Shown here one piece after another: positions 34,651 to 53,480 of a DNA stretch of 64,000 nucleotides. The first letter of the stretch is position 1, and every line of letters starts with the position of its first letter. Origin of the DNA: Myxococcota bacterium (GTDB taxonomy: Bacteria; Myxococcota_A; Bradymonadia; UBA7976; UBA1532); contig CAUJDF010000075.1 of assembly GCA_963169045.1 (NCBI GenBank), forward strand, positions 98,434-162,433. The letters run 5' to 3'. The notes under the pieces were generated by a model. It did not search any database. It was not told the DNA's origin and saw only the letters and a program-made list of their open reading frames with translations. Position numbers and translations under genes: made by a program.

Positions 34651-37600
34651 ATGTCCATGCGTAGGGTCACTTCGCTGACGAGCCTGCTGTGCCTTCTGTT
34701 CATGTTCGGCTGCACCGGCGAAGGCGGGGGCGGCGGTGACGGAGGCTCGGGCGGTGCCGGTGCTCAGGGCGGTGAAGGCGGCGCGGGCGGCTCGGGTGGC
34801 GAGGGCGGGGCCGGTGGAGAAGGCGGCGTCGGCGGCCAGGGCGGCGCCGGCGGCCCGGGCGGCGCCGGCGGCCAGGGCGGCGCCGGTGGACAAGGCGGCG
34901 CCGGCGGACAGGGCGGCGCCGGCGGTCAAGGCGGCGCCGGCGGTCAAGGCGGCGCCGGCGGTCAAGGCGGCGCCGGCGGAGAAGGCGGCGCCGGCGGAGA
35001 AGGCGGCGCCGGCGGAGAAGGCGGCGCCGGCGGAGAAGGCGGCGCCGGCGGAGAAGGCGGCGCCGGAGGTCAGGGCGGCGCCGGAGGTCAGGGCGGCGCC
35101 GGTGGCGCCGGCGGCCAGGGTGGCGCCGGCGGCGCGGGCGGTGAGGGCGGAGCGGGCGGCGCCGGCGGTGCGCCCGAGGTCGTCCTGCAGGGGCTGACGG
35201 TCGCGCCCGACGCCCTCCAGCTCGTCGCCGGCCAGACCGCGTACCTGCGCGTCGCCGGCACCTTCAGCGACGGCGACGAACGCGATCTGACCGACACCGC
35301 GGTCTGGCGCAGCGCCAACGGCGCGATCGTCGCCGTCGGCGCCCTCGGCGACGAGGGCAAGCAGGTCGTCGCCATCGGCGCCGGCCAGACGGCGATCACC
35401 GCCCGCGTCGGCGACGTCGTCAGCGGTCCGGTCGTGGTCACCGTGGCCGAGGTCGAGCCCGTCCGCATCGTCATCACGCCCGACGAGGCCACCGTGCCCG
35501 CCGGCGACTTCTTCGAGTTCACGGCGACCGCCGAGTTCAACGACGGTAACACCGCCGACGTGACCGAGCTGGCCGAGTGGCGCACCAGCAACGGCATCGT
35601 GGCCGAGATCTCCAACGAGCCCGGCGAGCGCGGGCGCCTCTCGGCCCACGTGGCGGGGGCGACGCAGGTCACGGCGATCTACGAGGGCCTGGTCTCGGCG
35701 CCGGTCCGCGTCGACGTCGCCGAGGCCGTCCTCATGGCGATCGACGTCTCGCCCGCCGATCCGACGGTGGCCGTCGGCCAGACGGTCTCCTTCACCGCGA
35801 CTGGCACCTACAGCGACGGCGACGAGGGCGACGTCACGGCGCTGGTGCAGTGGACGTCCTCCGACGAGGCCGTCGCGACCTTCGACGGCGCGCAGGGCGT
35901 GGCGCGCGGCGTCGCCGCCGGCCGGGCGCAGGTCGTCGCCCGCATCGGCGACCTCGCCAGCGCGCCGCGCACGATCAACGTCACGGCGGCGCGCGTCGTC
36001 GCGCTCGCCGCGCGCGGCGAGTCCGCCGAGGTGCCGGTCGGCGCGAACACACGCTTCCACGTCACCGCGACCCTGAGCGACGGCAGCGAGGTCGACTACT
36101 CGGCGCAGGCGGAGTGGCGCTCCTCCGACGCCGCGATCGCGCGCATCGTCGCCGGCGGCGTCGCCACCGGCGTGGCGCCCGGCGACGTGCAGATCACGGC
36201 GCACGCCGGCAACGTCGCGAGCGCGGCCCTGCCGCTGCGCGTCGTGCCCGTGGCGCTCACCGCGCTCGCGGTCGAGCCCGACAGCGCCGACCTCCGCGTG
36301 GGCGAGGTGACCCGCCTCGTGGCCCGCGGCACGTTCAACGACGGCTCCCGCGCCGACGTCACCGCGCGGGCCCAGTGGCGCAGCGCCAACGGCCTGATCG
36401 CCAGCGTCGGCGACGCCGAGCCCGACAAGGGCGCGGTCCGCGGCGTCGGCGCCGGGCAGACGCGCATCACCGCTTCCCTCGACGGCCAGGCGGCGGTCGC
36501 CACGGTCAACGTCCGCGCCCTCGCGGTCGCCCGGCTCGAGGTCGCGCCGGCCCAGGCCGAGGTCCCGCTGGGCGGCGAGCAGGCGTTCACCGCCACGGCG
36601 GTGCTCGAAGACGCCTCGCGCCGCGACGCTACCGCCGAGGTCAGCTGGCACAGCAGCGACGAGGGCGTGGCCACGGTCGACAACGAGGGCGAGGGCCGCG
36701 GTGTCGCCACCGGCCGCGGGCGCGGCCAGGCGTCGATCACCGCCCGGCTCGGCGCCGTCGTCAGCCCCGCGGCGACGCTCACCGTGACCGAGCCCGAGCT
36801 CACCGAGGTCTACGTCACGCCCGACGAGACCGAGGTGATCGTCGGCGAGACCGTGCAGTTCGAGGCGACCGCGGTGTACTCCGACGGCACCGAGCTCGAC
36901 GTCACCGAGCAGGCGCGCTGGACGATCGAGCCCGCCGAGCTCGCCGACATCTCCAACGCCGAGGGCACGCGCGGCGCGGCCACCGGCCAGCGTCTCGGCG
37001 TCGCCGACGTCTTCGCCTCCTTCGACGGCGAGCTCTCCGGGGCGGCGTCCCTGACGGTGCTGCCCGTGCCGAACCGCGCGCCGATCGTTCAGCTGCAGTG
37101 CCCGGAGTCGGGCCGCGAGGGCGACGCGCTCGACTTCGGCGCCGTGGGCACGAGCGACCCCGACGGCTCGATCGCCCGGCTGCTGTGGAACTTCGGGGAC
37201 GGCTCGCCGGCCATCGACATCGGCGACGGGCGCGCCGTCTCGTACACCTACGACGCCTCGGGCCCCTTCACGGTCGAGGTGACGGCCATCGACGACGAGG
37301 GCGCGCGGACGATCGCGCGCTGCAACGTGACCATCCTCAGCGCGAACGCCCCGACGGTGCGGCTCGTCCGCCCGCAGGGCGCCCGCGACACCACCCAGGG
37401 GGAGGTGATCTCGGCGCTCGTCGACGCGCGCCCCGGTCCGGGTCGCAACATCCGGCGCGTGGCGCTGCTGCTCGACGGGGAGGAGGTCGCCTTCGACGCC
37501 GACCTGCCCTACGAGATGGACTTCACGGTCCCCGCCGACGCGGCCACCGGCGCCACGCTGCGCCTCGTCGCCCAGGCGACGGACGACCGCAACGAGTCCG

Positions 37601-40575
37601 GCATCTCGGCGGCCACGCTGCTCAACGTCGTCAACGAGCTGCCCACGGCGACGTTCGTGGCCGTACCGTTCGCCATCCGCCAGGTGCGCGTGGACGCCGG
37701 CGGCGTGACCGACGACACGACGACGACCGCAAACCTGCAGGTTCGTTGGGATTTCCAGAACGACGGCGTCTGGGACACGCCCTTCGCCGCCGAGAAGACC
37801 GCCACCTTCGAGTACCCGGCCGTCGGCGACTACACCATCAAGATGGAGGTCCGCGACAACATCGGCCAGACGGCGTCGACGACGCGCGAGGTGCGCTTCC
37901 GCGACCAGCAGGTGGTGTTCGGCGACATCGAGAGCCAGGTCTGGTTCGGCACGATCATCGTGACGGGTGACGTCCGCGTGTTGCCGAACAACACGCTGAC
38001 CATCGCCGCCGGCACCCGCGTCCTCGTGACCAACGTCGACCAGGACCGCAACAACATCGGCGACTACACTTTGCAGGTCGACGGCCGCATGGTGGTCGAG
38101 GGCGAGCCGACGAACCCGGTGGTGTTCACCGTCTTCGGTGACGCGCAGCGGGCGGGCGCCTGGGACCGCATCATCCTCGCCGGCGCCGGCAGCACCATCA
38201 CCCACGCGGTGGTCGAGTACGCCGACGTCGGCATCGAGGCCCGCGCCGCGGCGACGCTCTCCAACGTCACCGTCCAGAACACCCGCTGGGACGGCATCTG
38301 GATCAACCGCGGCAACAACACGGCGCTGACCGACGTCACGGCGCACCACACGCGCAGCGGCGTCTCCGTCACGAACGCGACGGGCGTCCAGATCACGCGC
38401 CTGACGAGCCGTGAGAACGGCCAGGTCGGCCTCTACGCCGCCGACTCGACCGCGACGGTGGCCGACTCGGTGTTCCAGCAGAACGCGAACGACGGCGTCT
38501 ACGCGGAGCGCAGCAGCCTGACGTTCACCAACCCGTCGATCACGCGGAACGGCGGCAACGGCGTGCAGCAGTTCGACGGCACGCTCAACCTTCGCGACGG
38601 CGCGGTCGGTCGCAACGGCGCCGTCGGCATCGCGGTCCGCGGCGCCGTCAACGGCACGATCCAGCGGAACAACATCACCGAGAACGCGTTCGAGGGCGTC
38701 TCCGTCACCTACCACCAGGGCCGCAACCCGACCGTCGCGGTGACGCGCAACAACATCCACTCGAACGCGACGACGCGCAGCCACGTCTACACGGTGATCA
38801 CGGCGGGGCTGCCGTCCGCGAGCGACAGCTCGCGCGACGGTGTGCGCGTCACGTCGCAAGTGTGGACGCCGCCCGCGGGACACACGCTGCTGTTCGTCGA
38901 GGCCGACTACTCCGGCAATCAGGACGACTTCGGCGAGCTGCAGGACGGCACCGGCCGCGTCATCGATACCTTCCGGCCCGGCGCGAGCGCGCGCGTCTAT
39001 GACCGCAGCAGCGCCGAGCAGCGCCTGCGCGTGAGCGCCTGGGACGACGACTGCTGCACGGCGTCGACGATCCGCGTCGCCCGGGTCGTGACGCGGAGCA
39101 ACGGGCAGCGCGGCCAGCTCGTCGTCGCCGCCACGGCGGGCGCGATCAACGCCCGCGAGAACTACCTCGGCGTGTACCCCGACGTGCTGAGCGCCGTCTC
39201 CATCTCCCCGGCCATGGCCGCCGACCTCCAGGGCTTCGTCGGCGTCCCCTTCGACAACACGTGGAACACCGGGCCCTACTACGGCGGCGCCCTCGCGGCC
39301 GACACGACGTGGTCGGGCACGATCTTCGTGAGCGGCGACGTCACGGTGCCGGCCGGCCGGACGCTGACGGTCGAGGCGGGGACGCAGGTGCTCGTCGCGC
39401 CGATCGACCAGGACGGCAACGGCATCGGCGACTACAAGGTCGAGAGCAGCGGCGCCCTGGTGATCGCCGGCGCCCAGGGCAACCCGGTGAACTTCCGGGC
39501 GGACGACGCCGCGGGCGCCGTCCGGGACTGGGAGGGCATCCGCGTCCTCGGCGGTGGCTCGTCCGCGCGCTTCGTCACCGTGGCCGACACCGACACCGGT
39601 CTGCACCTCGCCGGCGCCGGCGCCGTCGTCGAAGACGCGACCATTCGCCGCGCCCACGTGGGCGTGCGCGTCGCGGGCGGCAACCCCACGCTGCGCCGCC
39701 TCCTCGTGCGCGACAGCGCGAGCCACGGCGTGCACGCGCAGCAGGCGGTGACGATCGAGGTGGCGACGGCGCGCAACAACGCCGGCAACGGCTTCGTGCT
39801 CGAGGGCGGGGCGGGTCGCCTCTCCGACATCTACTCGATCGAGAACGCCGGCCACGGCATCGACGTGCGCAGCCAGGGCAACAACGTGACGTTCTTCGAG
39901 TCGAGCGGCAACGGCCAGCAGGGCGTCCACCTGTACGCCGCGGCGTCGGGGACGTTCTCGGACTGCCTCGTCACGCTGAACGGCGGTGCCGGCTTCTACT
40001 TCGGCTCGCAGTACGACAACCACCCGCAGGCGACGGTCACGCGCTGCAACATCCTGAGCAACGCCAGCGTGGAGGGCGGCGGCGTGACGACGGCGACGGA
40101 GGCCCTCAACGTCGTCTCCGCCACCGACAGTGCGCGCGACGGCGTCCGCGTCACGTCCGGCGACTACAACGCGCCGTTCCCCATCTACGAGGCGAGGGTC
40201 GCGACCAGCGGCAACCAGGACGACTTCAGCGAGCTGATCAACTCGGTCAACGGTCAGTCCTTCGGCGCGCTGTCGCCGGGCACGATCCGCTGGTACGACA
40301 TCGCCAGCCTCATGCGCCTCCGCGTGTCGGCCTGGGACGACGACTGCTGCACGGCGAGCTCGATCACCGTGACCAACGTGCGCATGTACCGAGCGGGCCA
40401 GCAGAACCTCGACCTGGTCTCGAACGCGTTCGCCGCGAACCGCATCAACGCCCAGAACAACTTCTGGGGCGTCTTCCCGAACGTGGCGGGGAAGATCCAC
40501 GAGGGTCTGGCCGGCTCGGTCGATTACCGCGGCTTCCAGCCGAACGCGTTCCAGAACGTGGGGCCGCGGCAGTGA
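34651..40575 (+). CDS. Giant (~1975 aa) surface lipoprotein: (GGAGGxGG)n linker, ~10 Big_2 Ig-like domains, 2 PKD domains, and two duplicated parallel beta-helix modules each ending in a DDCCTAS motif
   Basis: MSMRRVTSLTSLLCLLFMFGC lipobox; a ~150-aa GGAGG repeat block; Big_2-like repeats (...VTAIYEGLVSAPVRVDV...); PKD motifs (LWNFGDGSP...YTYDASG and WDFQNDGVWD); and two beta-helix modules each followed by VRVTS...SGNQDDF.ELx...LRVSAWDDDCCTAS. Confidence 0.9.
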   Translation: MSMRRVTSLTSLLCLLFMFGCTGEGGGGGDGGSGGAGAQGGEGGAGGSGGEGGAGGEGGVGGQGGAGGPGGAGGQGGAGGQGGAGGQGGAGGQGGAGGQGGAGGQGGAGGEGGAGGEGGAGGEGGAGGEGGAGGEGGAGGQGGAGGQGGAGGAGGQGGAGGAGGEGGAGGAGGAPEVVLQGLTVAPDALQLVAGQTAYLRVAGTFSDGDERDLTDTAVWRSANGAIVAVGALGDEGKQVVAIGAGQTAITARVGDVVSGPVVVTVAEVEPVRIVITPDEATVPAGDFFEFTATAEFNDGNTADVTELAEWRTSNGIVAEISNEPGERGRLSAHVAGATQVTAIYEGLVSAPVRVDVAEAVLMAIDVSPADPTVAVGQTVSFTATGTYSDGDEGDVTALVQWTSSDEAVATFDGAQGVARGVAAGRAQVVARIGDLASAPRTINVTAARVVALAARGESAEVPVGANTRFHVTATLSDGSEVDYSAQAEWRSSDAAIARIVAGGVATGVAPGDVQITAHAGNVASAALPLRVVPVALTALAVEPDSADLRVGEVTRLVARGTFNDGSRADVTARAQWRSANGLIASVGDAEPDKGAVRGVGAGQTRITASLDGQAAVATVNVRALAVARLEVAPAQAEVPLGGEQAFTATAVLEDASRRDATAEVSWHSSDEGVATVDNEGEGRGVATGRGRGQASITARLGAVVSPAATLTVTEPELTEVYVTPDETEVIVGETVQFEATAVYSDGTELDVTEQARWTIEPAELADISNAEGTRGAATGQRLGVADVFASFDGELSGAASLTVLPVPNRAPIVQLQCPESGREGDALDFGAVGTSDPDGSIARLLWNFGDGSPAIDIGDGRAVSYTYDASGPFTVEVTAIDDEGARTIARCNVTILSANAPTVRLVRPQGARDTTQGEVISALVDARPGPGRNIRRVALLLDGEEVAFDADLPYEMDFTVPADAATGATLRLVAQATDDRNESGISAATLLNVVNELPTATFVAVPFAIRQVRVDAGGVTDDTTTTANLQVRWDFQNDGVWDTPFAAEKTATFEYPAVGDYTIKMEVRDNIGQTASTTREVRFRDQQVVFGDIESQVWFGTIIVTGDVRVLPNNTLTIAAGTRVLVTNVDQDRNNIGDYTLQVDGRMVVEGEPTNPVVFTVFGDAQRAGAWDRIILAGAGSTITHAVVEYADVGIEARAAATLSNVTVQNTRWDGIWINRGNNTALTDVTAHHTRSGVSVTNATGVQITRLTSRENGQVGLYAADSTATVADSVFQQNANDGVYAERSSLTFTNPSITRNGGNGVQQFDGTLNLRDGAVGRNGAVGIAVRGAVNGTIQRNNITENAFEGVSVTYHQGRNPTVAVTRNNIHSNATTRSHVYTVITAGLPSASDSSRDGVRVTSQVWTPPAGHTLLFVEADYSGNQDDFGELQDGTGRVIDTFRPGASARVYDRSSAEQRLRVSAWDDDCCTASTIRVARVVTRSNGQRGQLVVAATAGAINARENYLGVYPDVLSAVSISPAMAADLQGFVGVPFDNTWNTGPYYGGALAADTTWSGTIFVSGDVTVPAGRTLTVEAGTQVLVAPIDQDGNGIGDYKVESSGALVIAGAQGNPVNFRADDAAGAVRDWEGIRVLGGGSSARFVTVADTDTGLHLAGAGAVVEDATIRRAHVGVRVAGGNPTLRRLLVRDSASHGVHAQQAVTIEVATARNNAGNGFVLEGGAGRLSDIYSIENAGHGIDVRSQGNNVTFFESSGNGQQGVHLYAAASGTFSDCLVTLNGGAGFYFGSQYDNHPQATVTRCNILSNASVEGGGVTTATEALNVVSATDSARDGVRVTSGDYNAPFPIYEARVATSGNQDDFSELINSVNGQSFGALSPGTIRWYDIASLMRLRVSAWDDDCCTASSITVTNVRMYRAGQQNLDLVSNAFAANRINAQNNFWGVFPNVAGKIHEGLAGSVDYRGFQPNAFQNVGPRQ

Positions 40576-42723: not shown

Positions 42724-43623
42724 ATGGAGTGGCTCAACTACCACCACCTGCTCTACTTCCGGACGGTGGTGCGCGAGGGCGGCGTCGCGGCCGCCGCGCG
42801 CAAGCTGCGCCTCGCGCACCCCACCGTCAGCGGACAGATCCACGCGCTCGAAGATGCGCTCGGCGTGAAGCTCTTCGCGCGCAGCGGCCGACGCCTCGTC
42901 CTCACCGACGACGGCCGCCTCGTCTACCGCTACGCCGAGGAGATCTTCTCGCTCGGCGGCGAGCTGCTCGACGCCATCCGTGGTCGTCCCACGGGGCGGC
43001 CGTTGCGCCTCGACGTCGGGATCGCCGACGTCTTGCCGAAGCTGGTGGTGCACGAGCTGCTGCAACCCGTGCGGCACCTCGAACAGCCCGTGCGCCTCGT
43101 GTGCCGCGAGGACAAGCCGGACCGCCTGCTGGCGGCCCTATCGCTCCACGAGCTCGACGTCATCCTCGCCGACACGCCCGTCCCGCCGGGCAGCACCGTG
43201 CGCGTCTACTCCCACGTCCTCGGCGCGTGCGGCGTCACCTTCCTCGCCACGCCGGCCCTCGCCGCCGCCCGCGGCCCCGACTTCCCCGCCTGCCTCGACG
43301 GAGCGCCCGTGCTGCTGCCCACCGACAACACGCACCTTCGGCGCGCCCTCGAGCCGTGGTTCCAGCGCGTCGGCGTGCACCCGCAGGTCGTCGCCGAGTT
43401 CGAGGACGCCGCCCTCATGAAGGTCTTCGGCGCCGACGGCATGGGGGTCTTCCCCGTGGCGACGATCATCGCCGACGTGGTGATGCGGCAGGATGGCCTC
43501 GTCGAGGTCGGCCGCCCCGAGGGGGTGGTGGAGCGCTTCTACGCGCTGACGGCGGAGCGCCGCCTGAAGCATCCGGCGGTGGTGGCGATCTGCGAGAGCG
43601 CCCGGCAGGAGCTCTTCGCCTGA
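42724..43623 (+). CDS. LysR-family transcriptional regulator (NhaR-like N-terminus)
   Basis: MEWLNYHHLLYFRTVVREGGVAAAARKLRLAHPTVSGQIHALE, an NhaR-type HTH, followed by a LysR substrate-binding domain. Confidence 0.85.
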   Translation: MEWLNYHHLLYFRTVVREGGVAAAARKLRLAHPTVSGQIHALEDALGVKLFARSGRRLVLTDDGRLVYRYAEEIFSLGGELLDAIRGRPTGRPLRLDVGIADVLPKLVVHELLQPVRHLEQPVRLVCREDKPDRLLAALSLHELDVILADTPVPPGSTVRVYSHVLGACGVTFLATPALAAARGPDFPACLDGAPVLLPTDNTHLRRALEPWFQRVGVHPQVVAEFEDAALMKVFGADGMGVFPVATIIADVVMRQDGLVEVGRPEGVVERFYALTAERRLKHPAVVAICESARQELFA

Positions 43624-43631
43624 AGACGAAG

Positions 43632-43663
43632 GACCCGGGCCGACCGCGTGGGTCGCCCGGGTC
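43632..43663. terminator. Bidirectional GC hairpin terminator candidate between two convergent genes
   Basis: gacccgggccgacc-gcgtg-ggtcgcccgggtc, a 13-bp stem with a 5-nt loop and no U-tract. Confidence 0.45.
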
Positions 43664-43675
43664 TCGGCGGCGGGA

Positions 43676-44512
43676 TTACTTGACGTTGACCGTCGCGGTG
43701 ACCGACTTGCCGCTCGGCTCCGAGGCGGTGATCGTCGCGCTGCCCGCGCCGACGGCGGTGATGGTGCCGTCGGGGCCGACGGTGGCGATCTTGTCGTCGC
43801 TGGTGGCGAACGTCACCACGAGGTCCGCGATCGCGGTGCCGGCGGCGTCGACCGGGGTGACCTCGAACTTCGCCGTCGCGGCGGGGGCGAGGTCGAAGGT
43901 CGTCGTGGCGGCGTTGAGCGCGCTCGGGCCGGCCGGGGAGACCTTCACGGTCGCGGTGCCGGTCAGGCTGCGGCTGGTGGCGGTGATCTTGGCCTCGCCG
44001 GCGGCGACGGCGGTCACGTTGCCGTTGGCGTCGACCTTGGCGACGTTCTCGTCGCTCGAGGACCAGGTGATGGCGGCGTCACCGATGGCGGCGCCCGCCT
44101 CGTCGGCCACCTCGCCCTTGAGGGCGCCGAGATCGCCGACCTTGGCGTCCCAGCTCTCGGGGGTGACCTTGAGGGTCTGATAGATCTTGATGGTGACCGG
44201 GATCTGCTTCTTCACCTCGCCGACCGACGCCGTGATGGTCGTCTTGCCGGACTTCTTGGCGAGGACCTCGCCGCTGGCCGAGACCGTCGCGATGTCCGCC
44301 TTGTCGGACGCGAAGGCGACCTTGGCATCGGCGATGGGCTTGCCTTCCGCGTCGACGACCTTGGTCTTGAGGGTGACCTTCTCGTCGGCCGAGAAGAGGT
44401 TGACCGCCGCCGGATCGGACTGGATGTCGTGGGGCTTCTGACCGCAGGCCGAGAGGGAGAGAGCCGCGAGGAGGCTCACGCACGCTACCTGAACCGAACG
44501 AACGCCGCGCAT
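43676..44512 (-). CDS. Lipoprotein with tandem Big_2 (bacterial Ig-like) domains
   Basis: ATG at 44512 with an AGGAG RBS. MRGVRSVQVACVSLLAALSLSAC lipobox. The repeats read ...ATVSASGEVLAKKSGKTTITASVG... and ...KITATSRSLTGTATVKV.... Confidence 0.8.
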   Translation of the reverse strand: MRGVRSVQVACVSLLAALSLSACGQKPHDIQSDPAAVNLFSADEKVTLKTKVVDAEGKPIADAKVAFASDKADIATVSASGEVLAKKSGKTTITASVGEVKKQIPVTIKIYQTLKVTPESWDAKVGDLGALKGEVADEAGAAIGDAAITWSSSDENVAKVDANGNVTAVAAGEAKITATSRSLTGTATVKVSPAGPSALNAATTTFDLAPAATAKFEVTPVDAAGTAIADLVVTFATSDDKIATVGPDGTITAVGAGSATITASEPSGKSVTATVNVK

Positions 44513-44653
44513 CTGACAACGCTCCTGGTGAAATGGCCGGATGGGTCTCCCCCGGCCCTGAAAGCGCGCGGAGAAATGCGCCGACTCCTGTGCGCCGTCA
44601 AGATCAATTCCGTCGATCGACGGAATTCCGAACATGCTGTGACTACGAAGGAT

Positions 44654-47600
44654 TCAGCCGGCGAGGGCCCGCACGACGTGGAACCAGACGGGGTCGTGAC
44701 CGGGGGCCTGGAGGCGTCCGAAGGCGGCTGTCTCCATCTCTTCGCCACCCACGTCGCTCCAGATGGCCTGGCATCGCTGGCGGGCGGACTCCTCCTGCCA
44801 TCCGCCGCCGACGAGCACCGTCGCGATGCCGTCGCGCCGCGCGCGCGAATCGCCGAGCTCGGGGCGACGGAAGTACTCGGACTGCTCGAGCACGAGGTGC
44901 GCCGCCTTCTGGACGCCGCCGGCGAGGCTCCGGCCCCCGTGGACCTCGCGGAACGGCACGCCCGGGCCGATGCAGACGGCGGCGCGCACGGCGATGCCCG
45001 CGTCCAGCGCGGCGCGGTAGACATCGCGGGCGAAGCGCGCGACGTTCGTCCAGTTCACGGGGGTCACGTCGTTGCGCACCACGACCGACAGGCTGTCGGC
45101 GACGCGGCCGTGGTCGACCGAGGCGCCGGCGAGCCACCCCTCCGCGGCGGCGATCGCGGCGGAGAGCGTGCCGAAGATGCGCCCGAGGTCCTCGCCCTGG
45201 ACCGCGAGCGCGCCGATCACGTTGAGCTCGACGTAGCCGAAGACCTCGGTCTCGGCGCCCCCGGGCAGCGCCGGCGGGAAGAGCGACTGGAGCGCGTCCC
45301 GCAGCCGCCATGGCCCCGGCTCGGCGCGCAGCACCAGCTCGTGGAGCAGCTGGACGGCGCCGGCGGGCGGCATCTGCCGCGGGCGCGCCAGCAGCGCCTC
45401 GACGACCACCGTCGCCACGCGGAACACCTGCCGCATCGCAGAGGCGGTGCAGCCCTCGCGGGCCAGGGCCGCCACGAGCGCGTCGACGTCGACCGGCATG
45501 GGCCCGCCGAGCTCGTCCGGCGCGCCGAGCGCGTCTGCGGTGAAGCGACGCGGCGAGGCGCCGCCGTCGCCATCCGTCGGCGCGTCGGAGGCGAGGGCTT
45601 CGCGCAGGTGCCGCAGGTCGCCGGGCTCGCCGAGCGGGCGGTACCAGGGCGGGACGAGGCCCGGGCACACGTCCTCGGGGAGGACGGCGACGGCGAGCGG
45701 GTAGGGGCCTTCGTCGGGGCCGCCGGTGAGGGCGACGATGCGGCCCGTGAGCTGCGTCCGCGACTCGACGTGCTCGGGGTGGAGCAGGCACAGCGCGCGC
45801 ACCGGTTCGACCTCGCGCGCCCCGTCGACCCACAGCGGCGGCAGGACGCCGGTCACGGTGGCGACCGCGGGTCGCAGCACGCTCCACAGGCTCGTCTCGA
45901 CCCACTTCACTGCCTGCGCGGGCCCGCCGCCGGCGGCGAGCAGGCGCTCGACCTGCCGGTCGATGCGACGGAGCGCGCGCCGGCCGTCGTGGTCCGCCTC
46001 CGCGCGGGTCAGGCCGTGCTCGTCGGGCGACTGCAGGCGGCCGCGGGCGACGCGCAGGGCCGCGAGCAGGTCGCGCCGCGCGTCGGGCGGCAGGCGCGCC
46101 GGCGTCGGCAGGCGTTCGGCGACGTCGAGGGCGGCCTCGAGCACGTGGGTGCGGCAGATCATGTCGGAGCTGCCGGCGATGGCCCGCCGGAGCGACGCGT
46201 CCGTCGTCGCGAGCGCGTCGGGCGGCAGGCCGGCCTCGATCCACCGCGACGCGCTCGGGCGCCACGCGTCGACGTACGCCGCCGGCAGCGGCAGGACCAT
46301 CGTGCGCAGGTCGAGCTCCGTGCGCGCCTCGACCACGCCGGCGTGGCGCCCCGCCTCGGGAATGCCCGGCAACACCTCGGCGAGCGCCGCCCGGTAGCGG
46401 GTCGCCTGCCGCCCCACCCAGCGCGTGCGCGCCTCGAAGTCGTCGGCGGCGTCGGCGCGCAGCCGGTGCCGCTGCGGGGGCGCGAACGGGGGCGCCAGCG
46501 GTGCCTCGCCGGGGCGCACCGGGCACGCCTCGAGCAGCGTCGCGACCACGTGGGACAGCGGCCCGCCCACCGACGTCGTCAGGCAGTGGACGGGCTCGGC
46601 GACGCGCGTCCAGTCGATGTGCTGCGACGGAGACTCGGTGCGCACGTACGGCGTCTGCCGCAGCAGGACGTGCGTCGCCTTCGCGATCTGCACCAGGCCC
46701 GACGCCGCCAGCGCGTGCCCGAACGCGGTCAGGCCGCCGTACGGGTTCGGCCAATAGGAGCGCGCGCGCCGCCACGCGTCGTGGGGCGTGCAGCCGAGCG
46801 ACAGCAGGAACGCCATCTCGATCGACGGGAAGGCGTCGTGCAGCACGAGGAACGCCGAGGTGCGGAGAAAGTCATCGTTCGTGCCCGTGCTGCGCCGCAC
46901 TTCGACGAGCGCCTGGCGCACGGACTTGAAGTAGGCGAAGGGCTCGGCGCGCATCGTCACACGCGGATCGGCGTCGCCCTCGCCCACGCCCAGCACGCGC
47001 ACGATGCGGCGCTGCTGCCGGTCGGCGAGCCAGTCGCGCACGAGCGCCTCGTCGGTCGTCAGCAGCACCGCGCAGGCGCCGTTGCTGGCCTGGGCGGTAT
47101 GCCATCCGCGCAGCCAGCGTCCCATCGGCCGGGAGCGCTCGTACTCGTCGAGCTGTCGCTGGACCGACTCCGGCCTTCCGGGATCGACGTACCGCTGCGC
47201 CGCCCGGTACTCGTTGGCGAGCCCGAGCTTGTACATCACGACCTCGCGCAGCCAGGCTTCGACGTCCGGCGCCCGCGAGGCCGGCCGCGCGCGCCCCGCC
47301 ACGCGCACGCCCTCGGACCACGCCTGACCCAGCCCCTCCTGCCGCAGCCAGTGGCCGTACAGGTCCACGAGCATGTCGCCGACGCCGATCATCGTCAGGC
47401 CGAGCGTCCGCTCCGCCTCTTCGAGGACCTGGGCGACCGTGTCGATGGCGCGCCGCCCGCCCGGCAGCACCTGCCCGGCCACGACGAGCGCCGTCGCCGG
47501 CGCGTCGAGCCCGCGCAGCTGGCGGACGGCCGAGGCGAAGAGCGCCGCGCCGGCGTCGGACGAGCCGATCTCGAGGCGCGCCTGGCACCGGTCGCTCAGG

Positions 47601-47917
47601 GCCAGCGCGCGCTTGAGCCGGTTGGGCAGGTTGATCGCGCGCCGCGAGATCTCGCCCTCGAGGTCGGGCATCGTGGTGACGAGCAGGTGGTTGATCGCGT
47701 GGCTGCAGCGCGGTCCGAGGCCGGTGGAGCCGAGCGCGCGCCGGCCGGCGTCCAGCATCAGCGCCTCGAGGCGCCGCCCGTTCTCGCCGGGGGGCTCGTC
47801 GCCGCTGCGGGCCTTCTCGAATACGCGGGTCAGATCGCCTTCGGGCGCGCCGGGCCGCTGCGAATACTCGCCGGCCAGCACGTAGACGGTGCGCGTGGGG
47901 TCCAGCATGCGCGACAC
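44654..47917 (-). CDS. Large (1087 aa) protein with an N-terminal thiolase-like (condensing-enzyme fold) domain and an uncharacterised ~600-aa C-terminal region
   Basis: N-terminus reads TVYVLAGEYS.... A thiolase-type C-terminal signature NPYGGLTAFGHALAASGLVQ is present. The C-terminal half has a weak resemblance to a nucleotidyl-cyclase-like fold (…VRAAVCIGPGVPFREVHG…) that I cannot confirm. GTG start at 47917, with an alternative ATG at 47908. Confidence 0.75.
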   Translation of the reverse strand: MSRMLDPTRTVYVLAGEYSQRPGAPEGDLTRVFEKARSGDEPPGENGRRLEALMLDAGRRALGSTGLGPRCSHAINHLLVTTMPDLEGEISRRAINLPNRLKRALALSDRCQARLEIGSSDAGAALFASAVRQLRGLDAPATALVVAGQVLPGGRRAIDTVAQVLEEAERTLGLTMIGVGDMLVDLYGHWLRQEGLGQAWSEGVRVAGRARPASRAPDVEAWLREVVMYKLGLANEYRAAQRYVDPGRPESVQRQLDEYERSRPMGRWLRGWHTAQASNGACAVLLTTDEALVRDWLADRQQRRIVRVLGVGEGDADPRVTMRAEPFAYFKSVRQALVEVRRSTGTNDDFLRTSAFLVLHDAFPSIEMAFLLSLGCTPHDAWRRARSYWPNPYGGLTAFGHALAASGLVQIAKATHVLLRQTPYVRTESPSQHIDWTRVAEPVHCLTTSVGGPLSHVVATLLEACPVRPGEAPLAPPFAPPQRHRLRADAADDFEARTRWVGRQATRYRAALAEVLPGIPEAGRHAGVVEARTELDLRTMVLPLPAAYVDAWRPSASRWIEAGLPPDALATTDASLRRAIAGSSDMICRTHVLEAALDVAERLPTPARLPPDARRDLLAALRVARGRLQSPDEHGLTRAEADHDGRRALRRIDRQVERLLAAGGGPAQAVKWVETSLWSVLRPAVATVTGVLPPLWVDGAREVEPVRALCLLHPEHVESRTQLTGRIVALTGGPDEGPYPLAVAVLPEDVCPGLVPPWYRPLGEPGDLRHLREALASDAPTDGDGGASPRRFTADALGAPDELGGPMPVDVDALVAALAREGCTASAMRQVFRVATVVVEALLARPRQMPPAGAVQLLHELVLRAEPGPWRLRDALQSLFPPALPGGAETEVFGYVELNVIGALAVQGEDLGRIFGTLSAAIAAAEGWLAGASVDHGRVADSLSVVVRNDVTPVNWTNVARFARDVYRAALDAGIAVRAAVCIGPGVPFREVHGGRSLAGGVQKAAHLVLEQSEYFRRPELGDSRARRDGIATVLVGGGWQEESARQRCQAIWSDVGGEEMETAAFGRLQAPGHDPVWFHVVRALAG

Positions 47918-47971
47918 ATTAACAAACAGTCGTCCGCGGTCACGATCCCCACGGTCGACCGTCGCCGTCGA

Positions 47972-48946
47972 TCAGACGAGGCGGCCGGCGCGACAACGGT
48001 AAAGGGCCCCGCGGACGACGGCGTCGAGGACGGCGTCGACGGTCTTGAGGCCGGCGAGCGCGGCGGACCGGTAGATCGGCGCGCCCGGGTCGAGGTCGGG
48101 CGTGGTGTCCGCCTCGAGGCACCAGACGCGGCCGTCGTCGGTGACGCGGAAGTCCACGGCCCCGAAGTCGCGCAGGCCGAGCACCTCCACGGCGCGGCGC
48201 GAGAGGCGGCGCAGCGCCGTCGTCTGGTCGACGCTCAGGTCGGCGGGCGTGCGCGTCTCGAGGGCGGCGTGCCCGCGGCGGCGGCGATCCTCGTCGAGGA
48301 TCGGCCAGCGTCGCCCGGCGGCGGCGGGGTGGACGATCTCGCAAGGGGGCAGGATCCCTGCGGTTTCGGGTGAGGCGCCCCGCACGAACGGCACGACGAC
48401 GTCCCGGCCGTCGACGTACTCCTCGACGAGCACGCCCTCCCGATGCCGCGTCAACAGATCGGCGAGGCGCGCGCCCAGCTCGTCGGTCCGCTCGACGACC
48501 GACTGCTGCGTGACGCCGGCGGAGCCGTCGCCGAAGGCCGGCTTCAGGATGACCGGGAAGGCCAGGCTGAGGTGGGCGACCTCGCCCATGTCGCGCAGGA
48601 CGGCGGCCCGCGGGGTGGGCACGCCCACGGCGGCGAGCGCGTGCTTGGTGCGGCCCTTGTCGGCGGCGAGCGCGCAGACGAACGGATCGGCGCCGACATA
48701 GGGCAGGCCGAGCTCTTCGAGCAGCGACGGCAGCAGCGCGCGCCCGAAGCCGCCGCGCCGGCCGGACGCCGCCGGCAGCACGAGGTGCGGCCGCGCCGCC
48801 TCGAGCCGCGACACGTCCTCGGCGAGACGGCCCGTCCAGGGCAGCGCGATCACGTCGTGTCCCGCGCGCTGCAGGGCGGCGATCACGAGCGCCGCCGTCC
48901 CGTCGCCGTCATGGCGCGGCGCCTCGTGGACGAACGCGATCCGCAT
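47972..48946 (-). CDS. ATP-grasp ligase, D-alanine--D-alanine ligase family
   Basis: ATG at 48946. It reads MRIAFVHE...ADKGRTKHALAAVGVPTP...VILKPAFGDGSAGV...VEEYVDGRDVVVPFV, which are Ddl-like motifs. Its stop lies 55 nt upstream of the thiolase-like gene. Confidence 0.8.
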   Translation of the reverse strand: MRIAFVHEAPRHDGDGTAALVIAALQRAGHDVIALPWTGRLAEDVSRLEAARPHLVLPAASGRRGGFGRALLPSLLEELGLPYVGADPFVCALAADKGRTKHALAAVGVPTPRAAVLRDMGEVAHLSLAFPVILKPAFGDGSAGVTQQSVVERTDELGARLADLLTRHREGVLVEEYVDGRDVVVPFVRGASPETAGILPPCEIVHPAAAGRRWPILDEDRRRRGHAALETRTPADLSVDQTTALRRLSRRAVEVLGLRDFGAVDFRVTDDGRVWCLEADTTPDLDPGAPIYRSAALAGLKTVDAVLDAVVRGALYRCRAGRLV

Positions 48947-49157
48947 CGGTGTTTTTCCCCGTTCCGGCCTCGGCGTCCGCTCCTGCAAGAGACGTCGCGC
49001 CGCGCCGGCGCGGGGCGTCGCGCGGTCGGGGCGTGGCACGCTGCCCTCGCGGCCGCCCGCCCGGGGCACGATGCCCCGCCGCCACGCGAAGGCGTCCGCC
49101 TGTCTCTCCGCGGCACGTCCCTTGCTGACCTCTCGCCGAGACCAACGGGGGCGGACG

Positions 49158-49586
49158 ATGGACGCAACGCTCGGCAACTTCCTGGGGATCGCGCTCGTCG
49201 TGCTGGTCGCCATCGGCATCGGGATGCTCATGCCGGTGCTGGCCCAGGCGAAGCGCACGCTGTCCGTCGCGGAGCGACGCTTCGATCGCATCGGCGCGCA
49301 GGTCGAGGAGGTGCTCGACGACACCCGCCGCGTCGTCCGGCGCGTCGACCGCATCACCGAGGACCTCGAGGACTCGGGCGTGCCGGCGGCCCGCCTCGTC
49401 GAGTCGATGGCCGGCCTCGCGAACACGCTCGAGGCGGTGCGCGACCGGGTCGGCACCGTCGCCGCCATCGCGTCCACCGTGGGGCCGGTGGTCGTCTCGG
49501 CGTACCGCGCGTGGCGCGGCAACGGCCAAGACGAGCACGCCGACTTCGACGACCTGCCCCCGGGCGACGACGGGCCGCGCAACTGA
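49158..49586 (+). CDS. Small membrane-anchored protein (DUF948-like)
   Basis: MDATLGNFLGIALVVLVAIGIGMLMPVLA TM helix, then a helical, charged region. ATG at 49158. Confidence 0.55.
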   Translation: MDATLGNFLGIALVVLVAIGIGMLMPVLAQAKRTLSVAERRFDRIGAQVEEVLDDTRRVVRRVDRITEDLEDSGVPAARLVESMAGLANTLEAVRDRVGTVAAIASTVGPVVVSAYRAWRGNGQDEHADFDDLPPGDDGPRN

Positions 49587-49686
49587 CGCCGCTTTCTCGC
49601 AAAAGCCTCCCCACTTCGCCCCATTTCGAATGAAATGCCGGGCGTCCGCCGTCGGTCCGGCGAACGCGACAGGGGAGGTGCGGGTG

Positions 49687-51402
49687 ATGGGGAAGCGGGC
49701 CGTCTTCGTGATGGCGATGTTCTGGGGCTCGGGCTGCGTCGTCGTGAGCGACGGCGGCGGGGGCGCGCCGCCCGGCGACGCCGGCGACGACGCGTGCGCC
49801 GAGGGCTGCGAGGCGCTCGACGCCTGCGGCCTGTGCCTGCCGGACGGCGCGGGCGGCTGCCTCGACGTCTTCTCGTGCGCCGACCAGTGCCGCGCCACCG
49901 GCGAGGACGAGCTCGGCGGGTGCCTGGCCGGCGCCCGCTGTGACGACGCCGCCGTCGCCGCGTGTTACGACGCGACCGACATCGGCGACGACGCCTGCGC
50001 GCAGGGGTGCCTGGCGCTCGACGCGTGCGACCTCTGCGCCGAGGAGGGCGAGTGCCTGACGCCGCGCCAGTGCGCCGAGGTCTGCCGCGAGGCCGGCGAC
50101 GACGACGTCTACGCCTGCGTCGCCGAGGTCCGGGGCTGCGGCCAGGAGGCGATCGACGCCTGCTTCGATCGCGACGCGATCGGCGACGACGCCTGCGCGC
50201 AGGGGTGCCTGGCGCTCGACGCCTGCGACCTGTGCGAGACGGGCGACGGCGACGAGTGCCTGACCCCGGCGGCGTGCGCCGAGGCCTGCCGGGAGGCGGA
50301 ACTGGACGCGCGCTTCGGCTGCCTCGCCGAGGTCGACGCGTGCGACGCCGACGCCATCGACGCGTGCTACGACGACGCCCCGCCGGCGGACGCGTGCGCC
50401 GCGGGCTGCGCCGCGCTCGACGCGTGCGACCTGTGCCTCGAGGACGAGGAGGGCGCCTGTCTGTCGATCGACGCGTGCGCCGAGGCCTGCCGCGCCGGCG
50501 GCAGCGCCGCGAACAGCGCCTGCGTCGCCGAGGTCGAGGGCTGCGATGCGGACGCCATCGAGGCGTGCTTCGCCGAGGCGCCCGCGCCGTCGTGCGACGT
50601 CGTCTGCCAGCGCGTGGTCGAGTGCGCTCAGCCGGCGGACGCCGACGCCGCGCTCGCCGCCTGCGTGGCCGACTGCGCCGAATTCACTGACGAGACGCGC
50701 ACTTGCGTGGTCGACGCCGCCGAGTGCCCCGCGGTCGGGGCGTGCGTCGAGCGTGACTTCGCCTGCGAGGCGGTCTGCGCCGGCCTCGACGCGTGCGACC
50801 TGGGTCAACCTGGAGGCTGCACCTGCGCCGGCTTCTCGCCCGAGGCGCGCGCCTGTCTCGACGCCGCGATGGACTGCGAGGTGCGCGCCGCGTGCCTGAA
50901 CCCGGCGCCGCCGGCCCCGACCTGCGCGGACGCCTGCGCCCGGCGCGCCGACTGCGACATGGTGCCTGGCGAGGAGCGCGACGCGGCGGTCGCCGAGTGC
51001 GTGGCGAGCTGCGACGGCGAGGACGCCGCGCGCCTGCGTTGCGTCGTGGAGGCTCCGGCCTGCGGCGACGTGCCCGCGTGCGACGCGCCGGCCGAGTGCG
51101 CCGCGATCTGCGGCCGCGCCGCCGAGTGCGGCGACGCCGGCGAGGGCTGCGCGGAGGCGTGCGTCCGCGACACCGGGCCCGAGCTGCGTGCCTGCCTGCT
51201 GGCCGCCGCCGACTGCGAGGCCGCGGCGGCCTGCGAGCGCGCGGCGCGGTGCGAGCTCGTCTGCGAGCGGACGGCCGGCTGCGGCCTCGCCGTCGGCCCC
51301 GACTGCGCCGCCGAGTGCGCCGCGACCCTGACCCCCGAGCAGCTCGGCTGCGCGCTCGAGGCCGAGTGCGCCGACCTGCCCGCCTGCACCGAAGGCGCGT
51401 AG
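49687..51402 (+). CDS. Cysteine-rich tandem-repeat lipoprotein (Myxococcus-type Cys-rich repeat; about 70 Cys in 571 aa)
   Basis: ATG at 49687 with a GGGGAGGTG RBS. MGKRAVFVMAMFWGSGC lipobox. There are about 9 repeats of the form DDACAQGCLALDACDLC...ECLTP.QCAE.CREAG.D...C.AEV.GC...AIDAC. Confidence 0.85.
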   Translation: MGKRAVFVMAMFWGSGCVVVSDGGGGAPPGDAGDDACAEGCEALDACGLCLPDGAGGCLDVFSCADQCRATGEDELGGCLAGARCDDAAVAACYDATDIGDDACAQGCLALDACDLCAEEGECLTPRQCAEVCREAGDDDVYACVAEVRGCGQEAIDACFDRDAIGDDACAQGCLALDACDLCETGDGDECLTPAACAEACREAELDARFGCLAEVDACDADAIDACYDDAPPADACAAGCAALDACDLCLEDEEGACLSIDACAEACRAGGSAANSACVAEVEGCDADAIEACFAEAPAPSCDVVCQRVVECAQPADADAALAACVADCAEFTDETRTCVVDAAECPAVGACVERDFACEAVCAGLDACDLGQPGGCTCAGFSPEARACLDAAMDCEVRAACLNPAPPAPTCADACARRADCDMVPGEERDAAVAECVASCDGEDAARLRCVVEAPACGDVPACDAPAECAAICGRAAECGDAGEGCAEACVRDTGPELRACLLAAADCEAAAACERAARCELVCERTAGCGLAVGPDCAAECAATLTPEQLGCALEAECADLPACTEGA

Positions 51403-51410: not shown

Positions 51411-53480
51411 CTACCGGCAGGCGGAGACGCAGGGCCCGTCGCAGGGCGGCGCGACGACGCCGTCCGGGCGCCAGAACGCGTCGGTCTGGACCTGGATGGT
51501 GTCGAGGCGGCGCACGCCCTCGTGCACGCAGTTCTCCTCGCGCGGGATGAACGAGCGCAGCGTCGGATCGGGGTCGATGCCGAAGTCGACCTCGACGACC
51601 GCGGACACGTCGGCGCCCTCGGGCGGCAGCGCCAACGGCTCGAGGCCCGCGATGGGCCGCGGCGCCGGCTGCACGTGGCCGAGGCCGAGCGCCCGCGCGT
51701 GGAGCTGGCTGGCGAGGTTGGGCACCGACGTGTCGCCGATGCCGATGTGCATGAGAATGCGGCGGCCGTCCGGGCTGTCGGGGTACGGGTCGTCGAGCAC
51801 GTGCGGCGCGTAGGTGATCGGATCGATGCGGTCCATCACGGGCGAGACGAGCGCGATGAACTTCTGGACGTCGAGCGGATCGTTGATGCCGACGCGCACC
51901 AGGGTCAGGAACCGCGAGAACGGCACCGCCCGCGACATCATGAAGCCGAAGGACGCGCCGCCGACGCCGAGCACCGCGCGGCGCACGTGCGGCGACAACG
52001 CCATGTAGGTCCCGCCGAGGATGTGCCCCTGGCTGATGCCGTAGAAGTAGACCTCCGCCGGATCGAAGGCGGCGCGGCCCTGCACCTGCGTCGAGGCGTC
52101 CGTCGCGAGCGGCCCGCGCAGCGCGTAGGTCAGCGCGATGAAGTTCACCATCCCCTGGTGGACGCGGTCCGTGAAACGCAGCGCGTCGCTCGGCGCAATG
52201 ATCAAGGCTTCCGAGACCTTGGCGGCGTCGGGCGTCGACATGCCCCACCAGTCGACGGCGGCGACGACGAGGCCGAGCCGGTCGGACATCTCGCGCACGA
52301 AGCCACCCTCGATTTCGGCGCGCCCGCCGAAGAAGCCGTGTCCGAACTGCAGGACGCGGGCGGGCGCAGCGCCGTCGGCCACGGAGCGGGGGATGAGCAG
52401 GGTGAACTCGACGTCCGCCTCGCCGTTGGCGGCGGGGCGGCCGTCGGGGCCGCGGTGCAGGGTCGCAAAGGGCTCGGCCGACTCCATGTAGAGCGGCACG
52501 CGCAGCCGGCCGCGGACGCGGCGCGCCGTCGGCTCGTCGGGCGAGGCGGCGTCCTCGACGGCGTCGATGGTGACCGCGGGCGGCGCCGCCTCGAAGCGGC
52601 GGAGCGCGTCCTCGCGGACGGCGAGCATGTCGCCGGTGACGCTCGCCTCCGACTGGACGGTGAAGTCCCACGCGAGCAGCACGTCGCCGCGCGCCAGGCC
52701 GAACGCCTCGAGCTTCGGGAAGATCTCGCGGTCGTAGCGCTCGGCGAGCGGCGCGAGCACGGCGTCATCGCCCGCCTCGCCGTCGCGCAGGCGCCGGAAG
52801 CCCTCCGGGGCCGCGAGCGCCCCGCCGTCCGGGCCCCGCAACCCATGGAGCGCCACGATGTAGCGCGCGCCGTTCCGCAGCCGCACCATGGGGCGGATCT
52901 GGATCGCCCGCCTGCCCTCGGCCTCGTCGAGCGCGTCGAGCTCGGCGAAGTGCAACACCGGGGCGCCGGTCTCCGCGTCGAGCAGGGTCGTGGGGCTCGC
53001 GGCGGTCAGCGAGCCGGACGGGTCGGTGTGGAACACGAGGCCGGCGGGGTCGATCTCGCCGCCGAACCAGGCCAGGAGGAGCGGATGGTGCGAGAAGCCG
53101 TCGGCCGCGTGCACCCGCGTGGGATCGACCGCCTCGCCGTTCTTCGTCTTCGGCAGGGCGGCGTCGGGGATGGCCAGGCGCCGGCCCGAAGGCTGCGAGG
53201 GGTCGTCGGTCAGGAAGACGTCGCTCGGATAGGGCAGCAGGCAGTCGTGCTCGAACGCGAGCGGGTTGCAGCCCGGCGGCACGATCGTCTCGGCGGCGGG
53301 CGGCGCGGCGTCGGCCTCGGGCGGTTGCCCGCCGCATCCCCCGTCGGCGAGCGGCGCCGGGCAGGGCGGCGCCGCGTCGGGCGTCGGGCCGGCGTCGGCG
53401 AGCGTCTCGGTCGGCACGTCGACCTTCGACTCGCTGTCGCACCCCAGGACGAGCAGACAGAGCAGCCACGCGCGCCGCAT
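51411..53480 (-). CDS. Secreted lipoprotein of the alpha/beta-hydrolase (serine esterase/lipase-like) type
   Basis: ATG at 53480 with a GGGGAGG RBS. MRRAWLLCLLVLGC lipobox. Nucleophile elbow FYGISQGHILGG. 689 aa. Confidence 0.8.
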   Translation of the reverse strand: MRRAWLLCLLVLGCDSESKVDVPTETLADAGPTPDAAPPCPAPLADGGCGGQPPEADAAPPAAETIVPPGCNPLAFEHDCLLPYPSDVFLTDDPSQPSGRRLAIPDAALPKTKNGEAVDPTRVHAADGFSHHPLLLAWFGGEIDPAGLVFHTDPSGSLTAASPTTLLDAETGAPVLHFAELDALDEAEGRRAIQIRPMVRLRNGARYIVALHGLRGPDGGALAAPEGFRRLRDGEAGDDAVLAPLAERYDREIFPKLEAFGLARGDVLLAWDFTVQSEASVTGDMLAVREDALRRFEAAPPAVTIDAVEDAASPDEPTARRVRGRLRVPLYMESAEPFATLHRGPDGRPAANGEADVEFTLLIPRSVADGAAPARVLQFGHGFFGGRAEIEGGFVREMSDRLGLVVAAVDWWGMSTPDAAKVSEALIIAPSDALRFTDRVHQGMVNFIALTYALRGPLATDASTQVQGRAAFDPAEVYFYGISQGHILGGTYMALSPHVRRAVLGVGGASFGFMMSRAVPFSRFLTLVRVGINDPLDVQKFIALVSPVMDRIDPITYAPHVLDDPYPDSPDGRRILMHIGIGDTSVPNLASQLHARALGLGHVQPAPRPIAGLEPLALPPEGADVSAVVEVDFGIDPDPTLRSFIPREENCVHEGVRRLDTIQVQTDAFWRPDGVVAPPCDGPCVSACR

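Follow-up and report, generated by a model that had tools for sequence, protein, structure and literature searches.

Three genes encoded on the minus strand occupy positions 43676-48946 of the window, by which we mean the whole 64,000-nucleotide stretch analysed here, from the Myxococcota bacterium assembly GCA_963169045.1 (contig CAUJDF010000075.1, positions 98,434 to 162,433 of the forward strand). The middle gene encodes a large protein in which a thiolase fold without the catalytic cysteines is joined to a class III nucleotidyl-cyclase fold that is very probably inactive, and this protein is the main subject of the present analysis. The G+C content of the window is about 75% and its raw lists of open reading frames (ORFs) are crowded by spurious frames; real genes were picked out by frame analysis of the G+C content at third codon positions (GC3). 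Within 43676-48946 this gave a Ddl-like ATP-grasp gene (47972-48946, 324 aa, GC3 0.94), the large-protein gene (44654-47917, 1087 aa from a GTG codon, GC3 0.96) and the gene for a Big_2/Big_1 lipoprotein (43676-44512, 278 aa). These calls agree with an earlier interpretation made from the letters alone (the sequence-only reading), which had listed the same three co-directional minus-strand genes with a 55-nt gap. An identical database protein (P0001, 1084 aa) begins at the ATG at 47908, three codons after the GTG, and this ATG is likely the true start. The intergenic gaps measure 55 nt between the ATP-grasp and large-protein genes and 141 nt between the large-protein and lipoprotein genes. A gap of 18 nt, taken from the longest ORF, was rejected because the start of that ORF is not the called one.

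The large protein has no match in Pfam (E <= 0.01) or in PADLOC. It contains no transmembrane segment and is soluble and cytoplasmic. Its AlphaFold2 model, built on a 99-sequence alignment, has a predicted local distance difference test value (pLDDT) of 87.2 and a predicted template modelling score (pTM) of 0.88. The architecture is an SCP2-type thiolase-fold domain followed by a variable middle region, made of helices and small beta elements, and by a class III cyclase-fold domain. Some sequence searches reveal little of this: with the whole protein as query, phmmer matched only a thiolase among the PDB sequences, at E 0.9, and a profile of the N-terminal half alone gave nothing even at E <= 10. 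When the N-terminal domain was searched by phmmer against 1.84 billion representatives, 91 proteins were found at E <= 1e-3 and 33 at E <= 1e-30, a count that bears out the earlier remark that large thiolase-like fusions are rare. The protein belongs to a small family, without a Pfam or NCBIfam entry, that was found only in uncultured Myxococcota and in which identity falls to 27-30% overall. Two size classes occur among the relatives, the family proper of ~900-1130 aa and forms of ~500-590 aa that consist of the thiolase-like domain and a short tail. Full-text literature searches yielded no description of a thiolase joined to an effector-associated domain (EAD), nor of a thiolase-like domain joined to a cyclase homology domain. 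The fusion of a thiolase fold to a pseudo-cyclase, its Ser/Ser/Ala active site and the TIR, EAD and kinase variants described below thus appear to be undescribed; both folds and each type of degeneration already have precedents.

Residues 1-470 (46508-47917, minus strand) form the SCP2-thiolase-fold domain, as delimited by Foldseek, a profile match and conservation. Foldseek against the PDB placed SCP2-type thiolases first (Leishmania 3zbg and 3zbl, T. brucei 4bi9) with E ~1e-14 and target template modelling scores (TMt) of 0.7-0.8, followed by a Pyrococcus thiolase, BbsB, TbSLP and STLP1 of M. smegmatis. By sequence, the family profile matches T. brucei SCP2-thiolase at E 3e-5, and its best score is obtained with the C337A mutant (4bia), in which HDCF is changed to HDAF. 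The motif NPYGGLTAFGHALAASG, on which the sequence-only reading had relied, was confirmed at residues 391-407, inside the domain. The domain fails the Pfam hidden Markov models for thiolases, and its best NCBIfam score is about 20 bits against cut-offs of 403-591; a sub-threshold Thiolase_C signal is present in 6 of 28 family members.

At the position of the thiolase nucleophilic cysteine (CxSG elbow) stand Ser120 and Asp121 (codons 47555-47560, minus strand), each present in 98% of the 99 members. The position was mapped via P0250, a canonical relative from the representative search, in which the Cys of 'ETACSSGAAAL' aligns with S120; a regular-expression search for canonical thiolases or cyclases as references in the window and the related loci (~90 in all) had returned none. 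The HDCF loop reads His360-Asp361-Ala362-Phe363 (codons 46829-46840, minus strand; 99-100% conserved), with Ala in place of the acid/base cysteine, and the CxG motif reads S449-V-G, with Ser449 in place of its cysteine. No column of conserved cysteine exists in the 99 family sequences. The catalytic His401, which aligns with the GH of canonical thiolase-domain proteins, and the oxyanion-hole residues Asn391 and His360 are kept, and the near-invariant sites include H360 (99%), N391 (100%), H401 (98%), S449 (99%) and H456 (98%). Compared with SCP2-type thiolases (L. mexicana 3zbg, T. brucei 4bi9, zebrafish 6hsp) and with archaeal or DUF35-associated ones (Pyrococcus 7yvy, BbsB 7pxp), the domain shares the five-layer fold and aligns at the HDxF loop, the N-P-x-G-G...G-H motif and the GG-containing C-terminal loop. 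It differs from them in having Ser120, Ala362 and Ser449 for Cys, in an identity of only 17-18%, in scores below the Pfam thresholds and in its fusion to about 600 further residues.

To judge from these residues, the domain is not a thiolase in the enzymatic sense, because both catalytic cysteines are absent. Of the earlier assignment of the first ~470 aa to the thiolase/SCP-x type, the fold stands, whereas membership of the Pfam and NCBIfam thiolase families and the Cys pair do not. The fold and the retained NPxGG...GH motif would fit a true thiolase, or a condensing enzyme, serving lipid or polyketide pathways, but we consider this scarcely credible for a family in which the nucleophile is Ser, both acid/base Cys positions are Ala or Ser, no cysteine is conserved and the scores lie below the Pfam and NCBIfam thresholds.

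The pattern of conservation is, by analogy, unlike that of a decayed pseudoenzyme and resembles that of known repurposed thiolase folds. DpsC carries a S118-H297-D302 triad on a thiolase fold, self-acylates, and acts as an acyltransferase or priming ketosynthase (PMC12664062). Ltp2/Sal are thiolase-fold retro-aldolases with Gly at the nucleophilic-Cys position (PMC12329534). Like DpsC, Ltp2/Sal, TbSLP and STLP1, the window domain belongs to the thiolase superfamily without Cys-Cys chemistry; those proteins still act on acyl thioesters, DpsC has a Ser nucleophile too, and TbSLP and STLP1 are among the structural matches of our domain. The differences are that the catalytic Tyr of the Ltp2/Sal motif (YDHF/YDCF) is His in the window family (HDAF), and that no cyclase-fold domain is attached to any of them; no sequence relationship to DpsC was seen, no search aimed at one having been made. 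A 464-aa outgroup protein from the representative search, P0247, passes the Pfam thiolase thresholds and has Ser at the nucleophile ('ETASSSGAAAF'), and its tail shows a weak match to the DUF35/ChsH2 OB-fold family (PF01796, E 3e-4). This protein suggests that the switch from Cys to Ser may be older than the large family and arose among thiolase-DUF35 fusions.

The middle region (residues 471-884; 45266-46507, minus strand) is variable and was delimited from the secondary structure of the models and from conservation. It comprises a long helix, a beta strand at 525-534, a helical bundle, a small beta domain at 684-745, a conserved PGLVPPW motif (P756, W758) and a helical linker, and has no Pfam match even at E <= 10. 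A possible DUF35-type OB fold at residues ~520-760, homologous to the tails of the ~550-aa relatives, found no significant support; hhalign gave only a 13-column match at E 0.084, which is not significant.

Residues 885-1087 (44657-45265, minus strand) form a degenerate class III nucleotidyl-cyclase-fold domain, as defined by Foldseek and conservation. A second model covering residues 481-1087 reached a pLDDT of 87.1, and all 50 of the 50 Foldseek PDB matches listed are catalytic domains of class III adenylate or guanylate cyclases, aligned over about 200 residues with probability 1.0 and TMt 0.55-0.76 (Rv1900c, E 4e-7, TMt 0.72; Ma1120, TMt 0.76). The suggestion that the C-terminal 600 aa be searched for a degenerate class III cyclase fold was thus well founded for the last ~200 aa. 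With the known enzymes (Rv1900c 1ybt, Cya2 2w01, CyaC 1wc5, Ma1120 5d15) the domain shares the beta-alpha-beta-beta-alpha-beta core of about 200 residues and the structural Arg and Gly of the 'RxGxxxG' strand (R978, 91%; G984 and G986). It differs in an identity of 10-15%, in the lack of PF00211 and in the absence of conservation of the metal Asp pair and of the transition-state Asn and Arg. PF00211 was matched neither by the large protein nor by 28 relatives nor by the isolated domain at E <= 10, and residues 885-1087 contain no Asp, Glu, Asn or Lys column conserved in 60% or more of the family. The catalytic positions (899, 941, ~1003 and ~1007) were mapped approximately, by motif and order of secondary structure: of the inferred metal-binding Asp positions, the window protein has Asn at 899, where 38% of the family have Asp, and Asp at 941 (59%), while at the inferred transition-state positions Asn is replaced by Gln1003 (Asn being absent among the residues listed there) and Arg by His1007 (Arg in 9%).

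Because a cyclase fold is present without a conserved acidic residue, the domain is very probably inactive, that is, a pseudo-cyclase. The succession of a sensor, a helical linker and a cyclase is typical of class III cyclases, and together with the fold itself and the presence of Asp941 it would fit an active nucleotide cyclase governed by an N-terminal thiolase-like sensor. Against this stand the missing PF00211 signal, even at E <= 10, the lack of any conserved acidic, Asn, Lys or Arg catalytic column, Asn at 899, and Gln and His at the Asn and Arg positions; we regard an active cyclase as highly improbable. Annotation of the large protein as a thiolase or as a cyclase should be avoided.

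Some relatives carry further domains. At least six family members (P0025, P0037-P0039, P0044 and P0048) end in a TIR_2/ThsB-type TIR domain, and P0054 ends in a weak EAD1-like domain and is preceded by an AAA-type gene. Two distant relatives of the N-terminal domain are also fusions: P0208 joins the thiolase-like domain to a Ser/Thr kinase (Pkinase), and P0201 joins it to EAD5 (PF19957, E 9e-9, above the Pfam cut-off). The P0201 locus (L086:292-6662) is defence-island-like, the gene being flanked by one for a PLDc_2-DEAD-helicase-DUF3427 protein and one for an HNH_2 endonuclease. EAD1 and EAD5 recruit effectors, and inactive cyclic nucleotide (cNMP) cyclase domains recur in the conflict systems of multicellular prokaryotes (Kaur et al. 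2020, PMC7159879); the word 'thiolase' does not occur in that paper. The window protein shares with those systems a phylum of the multicellular type, an inactive cyclase domain, and relatives with EAD5, EAD1-like and TIR domains. It differs from them in that neither the protein nor its neighbours in the window include an EAD or TIR domain or an adjacent NTPase, vWA or MoxR core, and in its thiolase-like domain. Most family members, the window protein included, lack such adaptors and are set among housekeeping genes.

These fusions bring in the possibility of a conflict or immunity effector, in which the Ser-type thiolase fold would be toxic, for example by destroying acyl-CoA or acyl carrier protein (acyl-ACP) pools, and would be restrained by the pseudo-cyclase until a signal releases it; the variants with TIR or EAD would then be wired into such circuits, and the window protein would lack the wiring or be recruited in another way. 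The EAD5 fusion in its defence-island-like setting, the EAD1-like tail after an AAA-type NTPase gene, the six or more TIR/ThsB-type C-termini, and the published description of EAD1 and EAD5 as recruiters of effectors, and of inactive cyclases as typical components of such systems in multicellular bacteria (PMC7159879), all point this way. As a description of the window protein we think it unlikely, since that protein and most members have no TIR or EAD, PADLOC gives no match, no NTPase, vWA or MoxR core is nearby, and the neighbourhoods are of housekeeping type (electron transfer flavoprotein, Liv ABC transporter, major facilitator superfamily, KpsF-like) and stable within sublineages.

The neighbourhoods were compared at 75 genomic loci encoding relatives of the large protein, all of them in metagenome-assembled genomes (MAGs) of Myxococcota (Polyangiales, Myxococcaceae, Bradymonadia and Haliangium-like) and none in a cultured strain. 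Clustering of the plausible ORFs of these loci found no neighbour family common to the whole large-protein family; the best one occurs in 19 of 75, at variable positions. The immediate same-strand neighbours depend on the sublineage, and comprise electron transfer flavoprotein (ETF) beta and alpha subunits, enoyl-CoA hydratase, short-chain dehydrogenase/reductase (SDR), an M74-LysM peptidase, an alpha/beta hydrolase and a GSDH-cytochrome c protein. In a Myxococcaceae-type subfamily of about 30% identity, ETF beta lies 26-95 nt downstream on the same strand in five loci (L026, L022, L039, L058 and L041), and ETF alpha follows just beyond it in four of them, none being found in L022. The ETF neighbours suggest a link to acyl-CoA oxidation in that lineage, and the acyl-CoA-related neighbours as a group are a weak hint that the module still handles acyl thioesters.

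Such neighbours are what would be expected of a housekeeping acyl-CoA enzyme, that is, a thiolase fold that has lost its cysteines and been repurposed for fatty-acid or lipid catabolism, as in Ltp2/Sal or TbSLP-type proteins, with a C-terminal half of structural use. ETF beta/alpha stand directly downstream on the same strand in 5-6 loci, enoyl-CoA hydratase in 3-4 and SDR in 3, a PlsC-type acyltransferase is divergently upstream in 6, repurposed thiolase active sites have a precedent (PMC12329534), and TbSLP, STLP1 and BbsB are among the closest folds. Yet each of these neighbours occurs in no more than a minority of loci and all are absent from the window, the catalytic Tyr motif of Ltp2/Sal is HDAF here, and a regulatory-looking extension of 600 aa, with fusions to TIR, EAD and kinase domains, would be unusual for a plain metabolic enzyme. 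We hold this explanation to be rather improbable.

Ser/Thr kinases were a further candidate. They adjoin the homologue in six loci of the closer subfamily (L004, L010, L011, L013, L015 and L075), and one kinase fragment in the family loci carries a cNMP-binding domain. Their architectures differ (AAA_16/TPR, FGE-sulfatase, PilZ), and such kinases are very abundant in Myxococcota. A recurrent kinase partner was rejected, the adjacent kinases being of unrelated architectures and their presence probably coincidental.

The sequence-only reading had suggested that the three genes form one biosynthetic operon: on an acyl or lipid scaffold made or carried by the thiolase-like protein, the ATP-grasp enzyme would attach an amino acid or peptide in amide linkage, and the Big_2 lipoprotein would present the product at the surface or act as its receptor. 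Several features favour this. All three genes lie on one strand, 55 and 141 nt apart, between a divergent DUF948-like gene upstream (49071-49586, plus strand) and a convergent LysR/NhaR-type regulator gene downstream (42724-43623, plus strand), beyond which comes a gene for an HtpX-like M48 peptidase. The acidic residues for Mg and ATP are kept in the ATP-grasp protein. A scan of 43400-49300 for consensus promoters and terminators found none.

Every neighbour in the window was compared by tblastn with the 75 loci. The ATP-grasp gene was found in 0 of 75, and the lipoprotein in one (L008), where it lies on the opposite strand at a distance of about 5 kb, so that it is adjacent in none. A metagenomic relative of 76% identity (L078) keeps the ATP-grasp, large-protein and lipoprotein genes, along with the DUF948 gene and both of two unannotated ORFs (590 and 689 aa) of the window. 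The trio in L078 is ordinary synteny of close relatives, the whole region being common to both, and it carries no information because the entire neighbourhood is shared. A 45%-identical relative (L079) lacks both the ATP-grasp gene and the lipoprotein. Conversely, the nearest ATP-grasp homologues (42-43% identity) have as neighbours a type III-B CRISPR locus, or a KamA-like radical-SAM gene with a second Ddl-like gene, or stand alone, and no large-protein relative adjoins them at the loci examined.

The synteny expected of a three-gene pathway is thus kept only in L078, and the pathway itself finds no support, because linkage is absent across divergent loci, L079 is without both partners and the ATP-grasp homologues occur in unrelated contexts; measured against the conditions that the sequence-only reading had itself set, it counts as refuted. 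The lipoprotein gene has conserved elements of its own (a -35-like sequence and a ribosome-binding site), Big_2 proteins are abundant in the window, and the thiolase domain is without the cysteines required for Claisen chemistry. A single operon is very unlikely, the synteny having largely disposed of it. Only within one shallow lineage do the three genes adjoin one another, and they are not a conserved functional unit; the ATP-grasp and Big_2 proteins most likely act independently of the large protein. A tidy three-gene 'operon' in a MAG of high G+C can be a juxtaposition specific to a lineage.

The reading of the large protein that we favour, at somewhat better than even odds, is a serine-dependent module for acyl-thioester binding or acyl transfer, coupled to a regulatory or dimerising pseudo-cyclase and independent of both neighbours. 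The N-terminal domain would bind an acyl thioester (acyl-CoA or acyl-ACP). By analogy with DpsC, Ser120 would most likely form with His401 an acyl-O-enzyme leading to acyl transfer or thioester hydrolysis and not to Claisen chemistry. The dead cyclase, joined via the helical region, may serve as a dimerisation, nucleotide-binding or regulatory module, in an arrangement that would echo the usual sensor-linker-cyclase layout. Relatives fuse it to TIR, EAD or kinase domains, so the module seems to operate in the signalling or conflict circuits of these multicellular bacteria.

Several points weigh against this reading. The window protein is without TIR or EAD and lies among ordinary chromosomal genes, and its signalling or conflict role is extrapolated from relatives. 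The invariant residues at the active-site positions could serve ligand sensing instead of catalysis, the acyl-CoA-related neighbours each occur in a minority of loci only, and the cyclase positions are placed approximately. Moreover, the short gaps and common strand leave co-transcription of the ATP-grasp and large-protein genes possible in this lineage.

If the serine-dependent reading is correct, the thiolase superfamily gains a repurposed branch with Ser for both catalytic cysteines, fused to a dead class III cyclase. A broader and more tentative proposal, which we put forward as possible and well short of probable, is that the N-terminal module defines an undescribed 'serine thiolase-fold' family of enzymes or sensors, marked by [ST]-S-[DES]-x-G, HDAF, GH and SVG. 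With a pseudo-cyclase, TIR, EAD or Ser/Thr kinase as partner, such proteins would sense or destroy acyl thioesters in the signalling and immunity of Myxococcota and of a few bacteria outside that phylum; the window protein would represent the plain core form. On the serine-dependent reading, the TIR, EAD5 and kinase fusions of relatives suggest that multicellular bacteria may use acyl-CoA or acyl-ACP chemistry as a hitherto unrecognised input, or as a weapon, in conflict and signalling.

The ATP-grasp protein resembles the Ddl/Van family in its C-terminal domain (PF07478, Dala_Dala_lig_C, E 2e-16), in about 30% identity to solved Ddl structures, DdlB included over its full length, and in the alignment of the Mg/ATP acidic residues. 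It differs in that Pfam finds no PF01820 N-terminal domain, either in it or in its closest homologues, and in its scores with the NCBIfam Ddl models, the best of which, 106 bits, stays well below the cut-off of 243. Aligned with P. aeruginosa DdlB, it has 'DFGAVD' where that enzyme has 'GWGRAD', and the Arg of the motif is lost. This Arg of the GWGR(I/A)D motif we take to be the catalytic Arg255 of E. coli DdlB. Going by these motifs, the protein is a diverged member of the Ddl family that does not qualify as a true D-Ala-D-Ala ligase, and it is probably an active ligase; its annotation as Ddl should be avoided. One homologue (P0130, 42% identity) is found at L083:56-3703 in a row with a KamA-like lysine aminomutase gene (Radical_SAM and LAM_C) and a second Ddl-like ATP-grasp gene. 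This row is possibly a beta-lysine-ligating cassette, and it may give a clue to the kind of substrate used by the subfamily to which the window ATP-grasp belongs.

The lipoprotein has a signal sequence with a lipobox Cys, MRGVRSVQVACVSLLAALSLSAC, in which the signal peptide ends in the lipobox LSLSAC, and matches Big_2 in three stretches (E 6e-23). It is an ordinary Big_2/Big_1 surface protein, and its presence is unremarkable because other Big_2 ORFs occur in the window, namely a 2354-aa protein and one further ORF. The 141-nt gap before its gene, unusually rich in A+T, holds a CTTGAC element and an AGGAG site that are both conserved in L078, and the gene probably has an independent promoter. 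A perfect 22-bp palindrome, AATTCCGTCGATCGACGGAATT (44606-44627), precedes the CTTGAC element. It could be a hairpin or an operator; it is not conserved in L078, the fold z-score of the whole gap (-1.39) is not significant, and the Rfam scan of the window gave no match.

Several other proteins of the window may be noted. The 2354-aa protein (33511-40572, plus strand) is secreted and contains three Big_2 stretches, PKD domains and a right-handed beta-helix/NosD region. An unusual combination of a CotH kinase, two C-type lectin domains and MopE-type metal-binding motifs is found in a 913-aa protein (30229-32967, plus strand). A hybrid signalling protein of 1530 aa (7759-12348, plus strand) joins a Ser/Thr kinase to AAA_16 (STAND-like), TPR, GAF, HisKA and HATPase domains, in that order. 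The two unannotated ORFs conserved in L078, of 590 aa (49630-51402, plus strand) and 689 aa (51411-53480, minus strand), show strong coding GC3 and have no Pfam or NCBIfam match, and the 689-aa product has a lipoprotein-like signal, MRRAWLLCLLVLGC, at its N-terminus.

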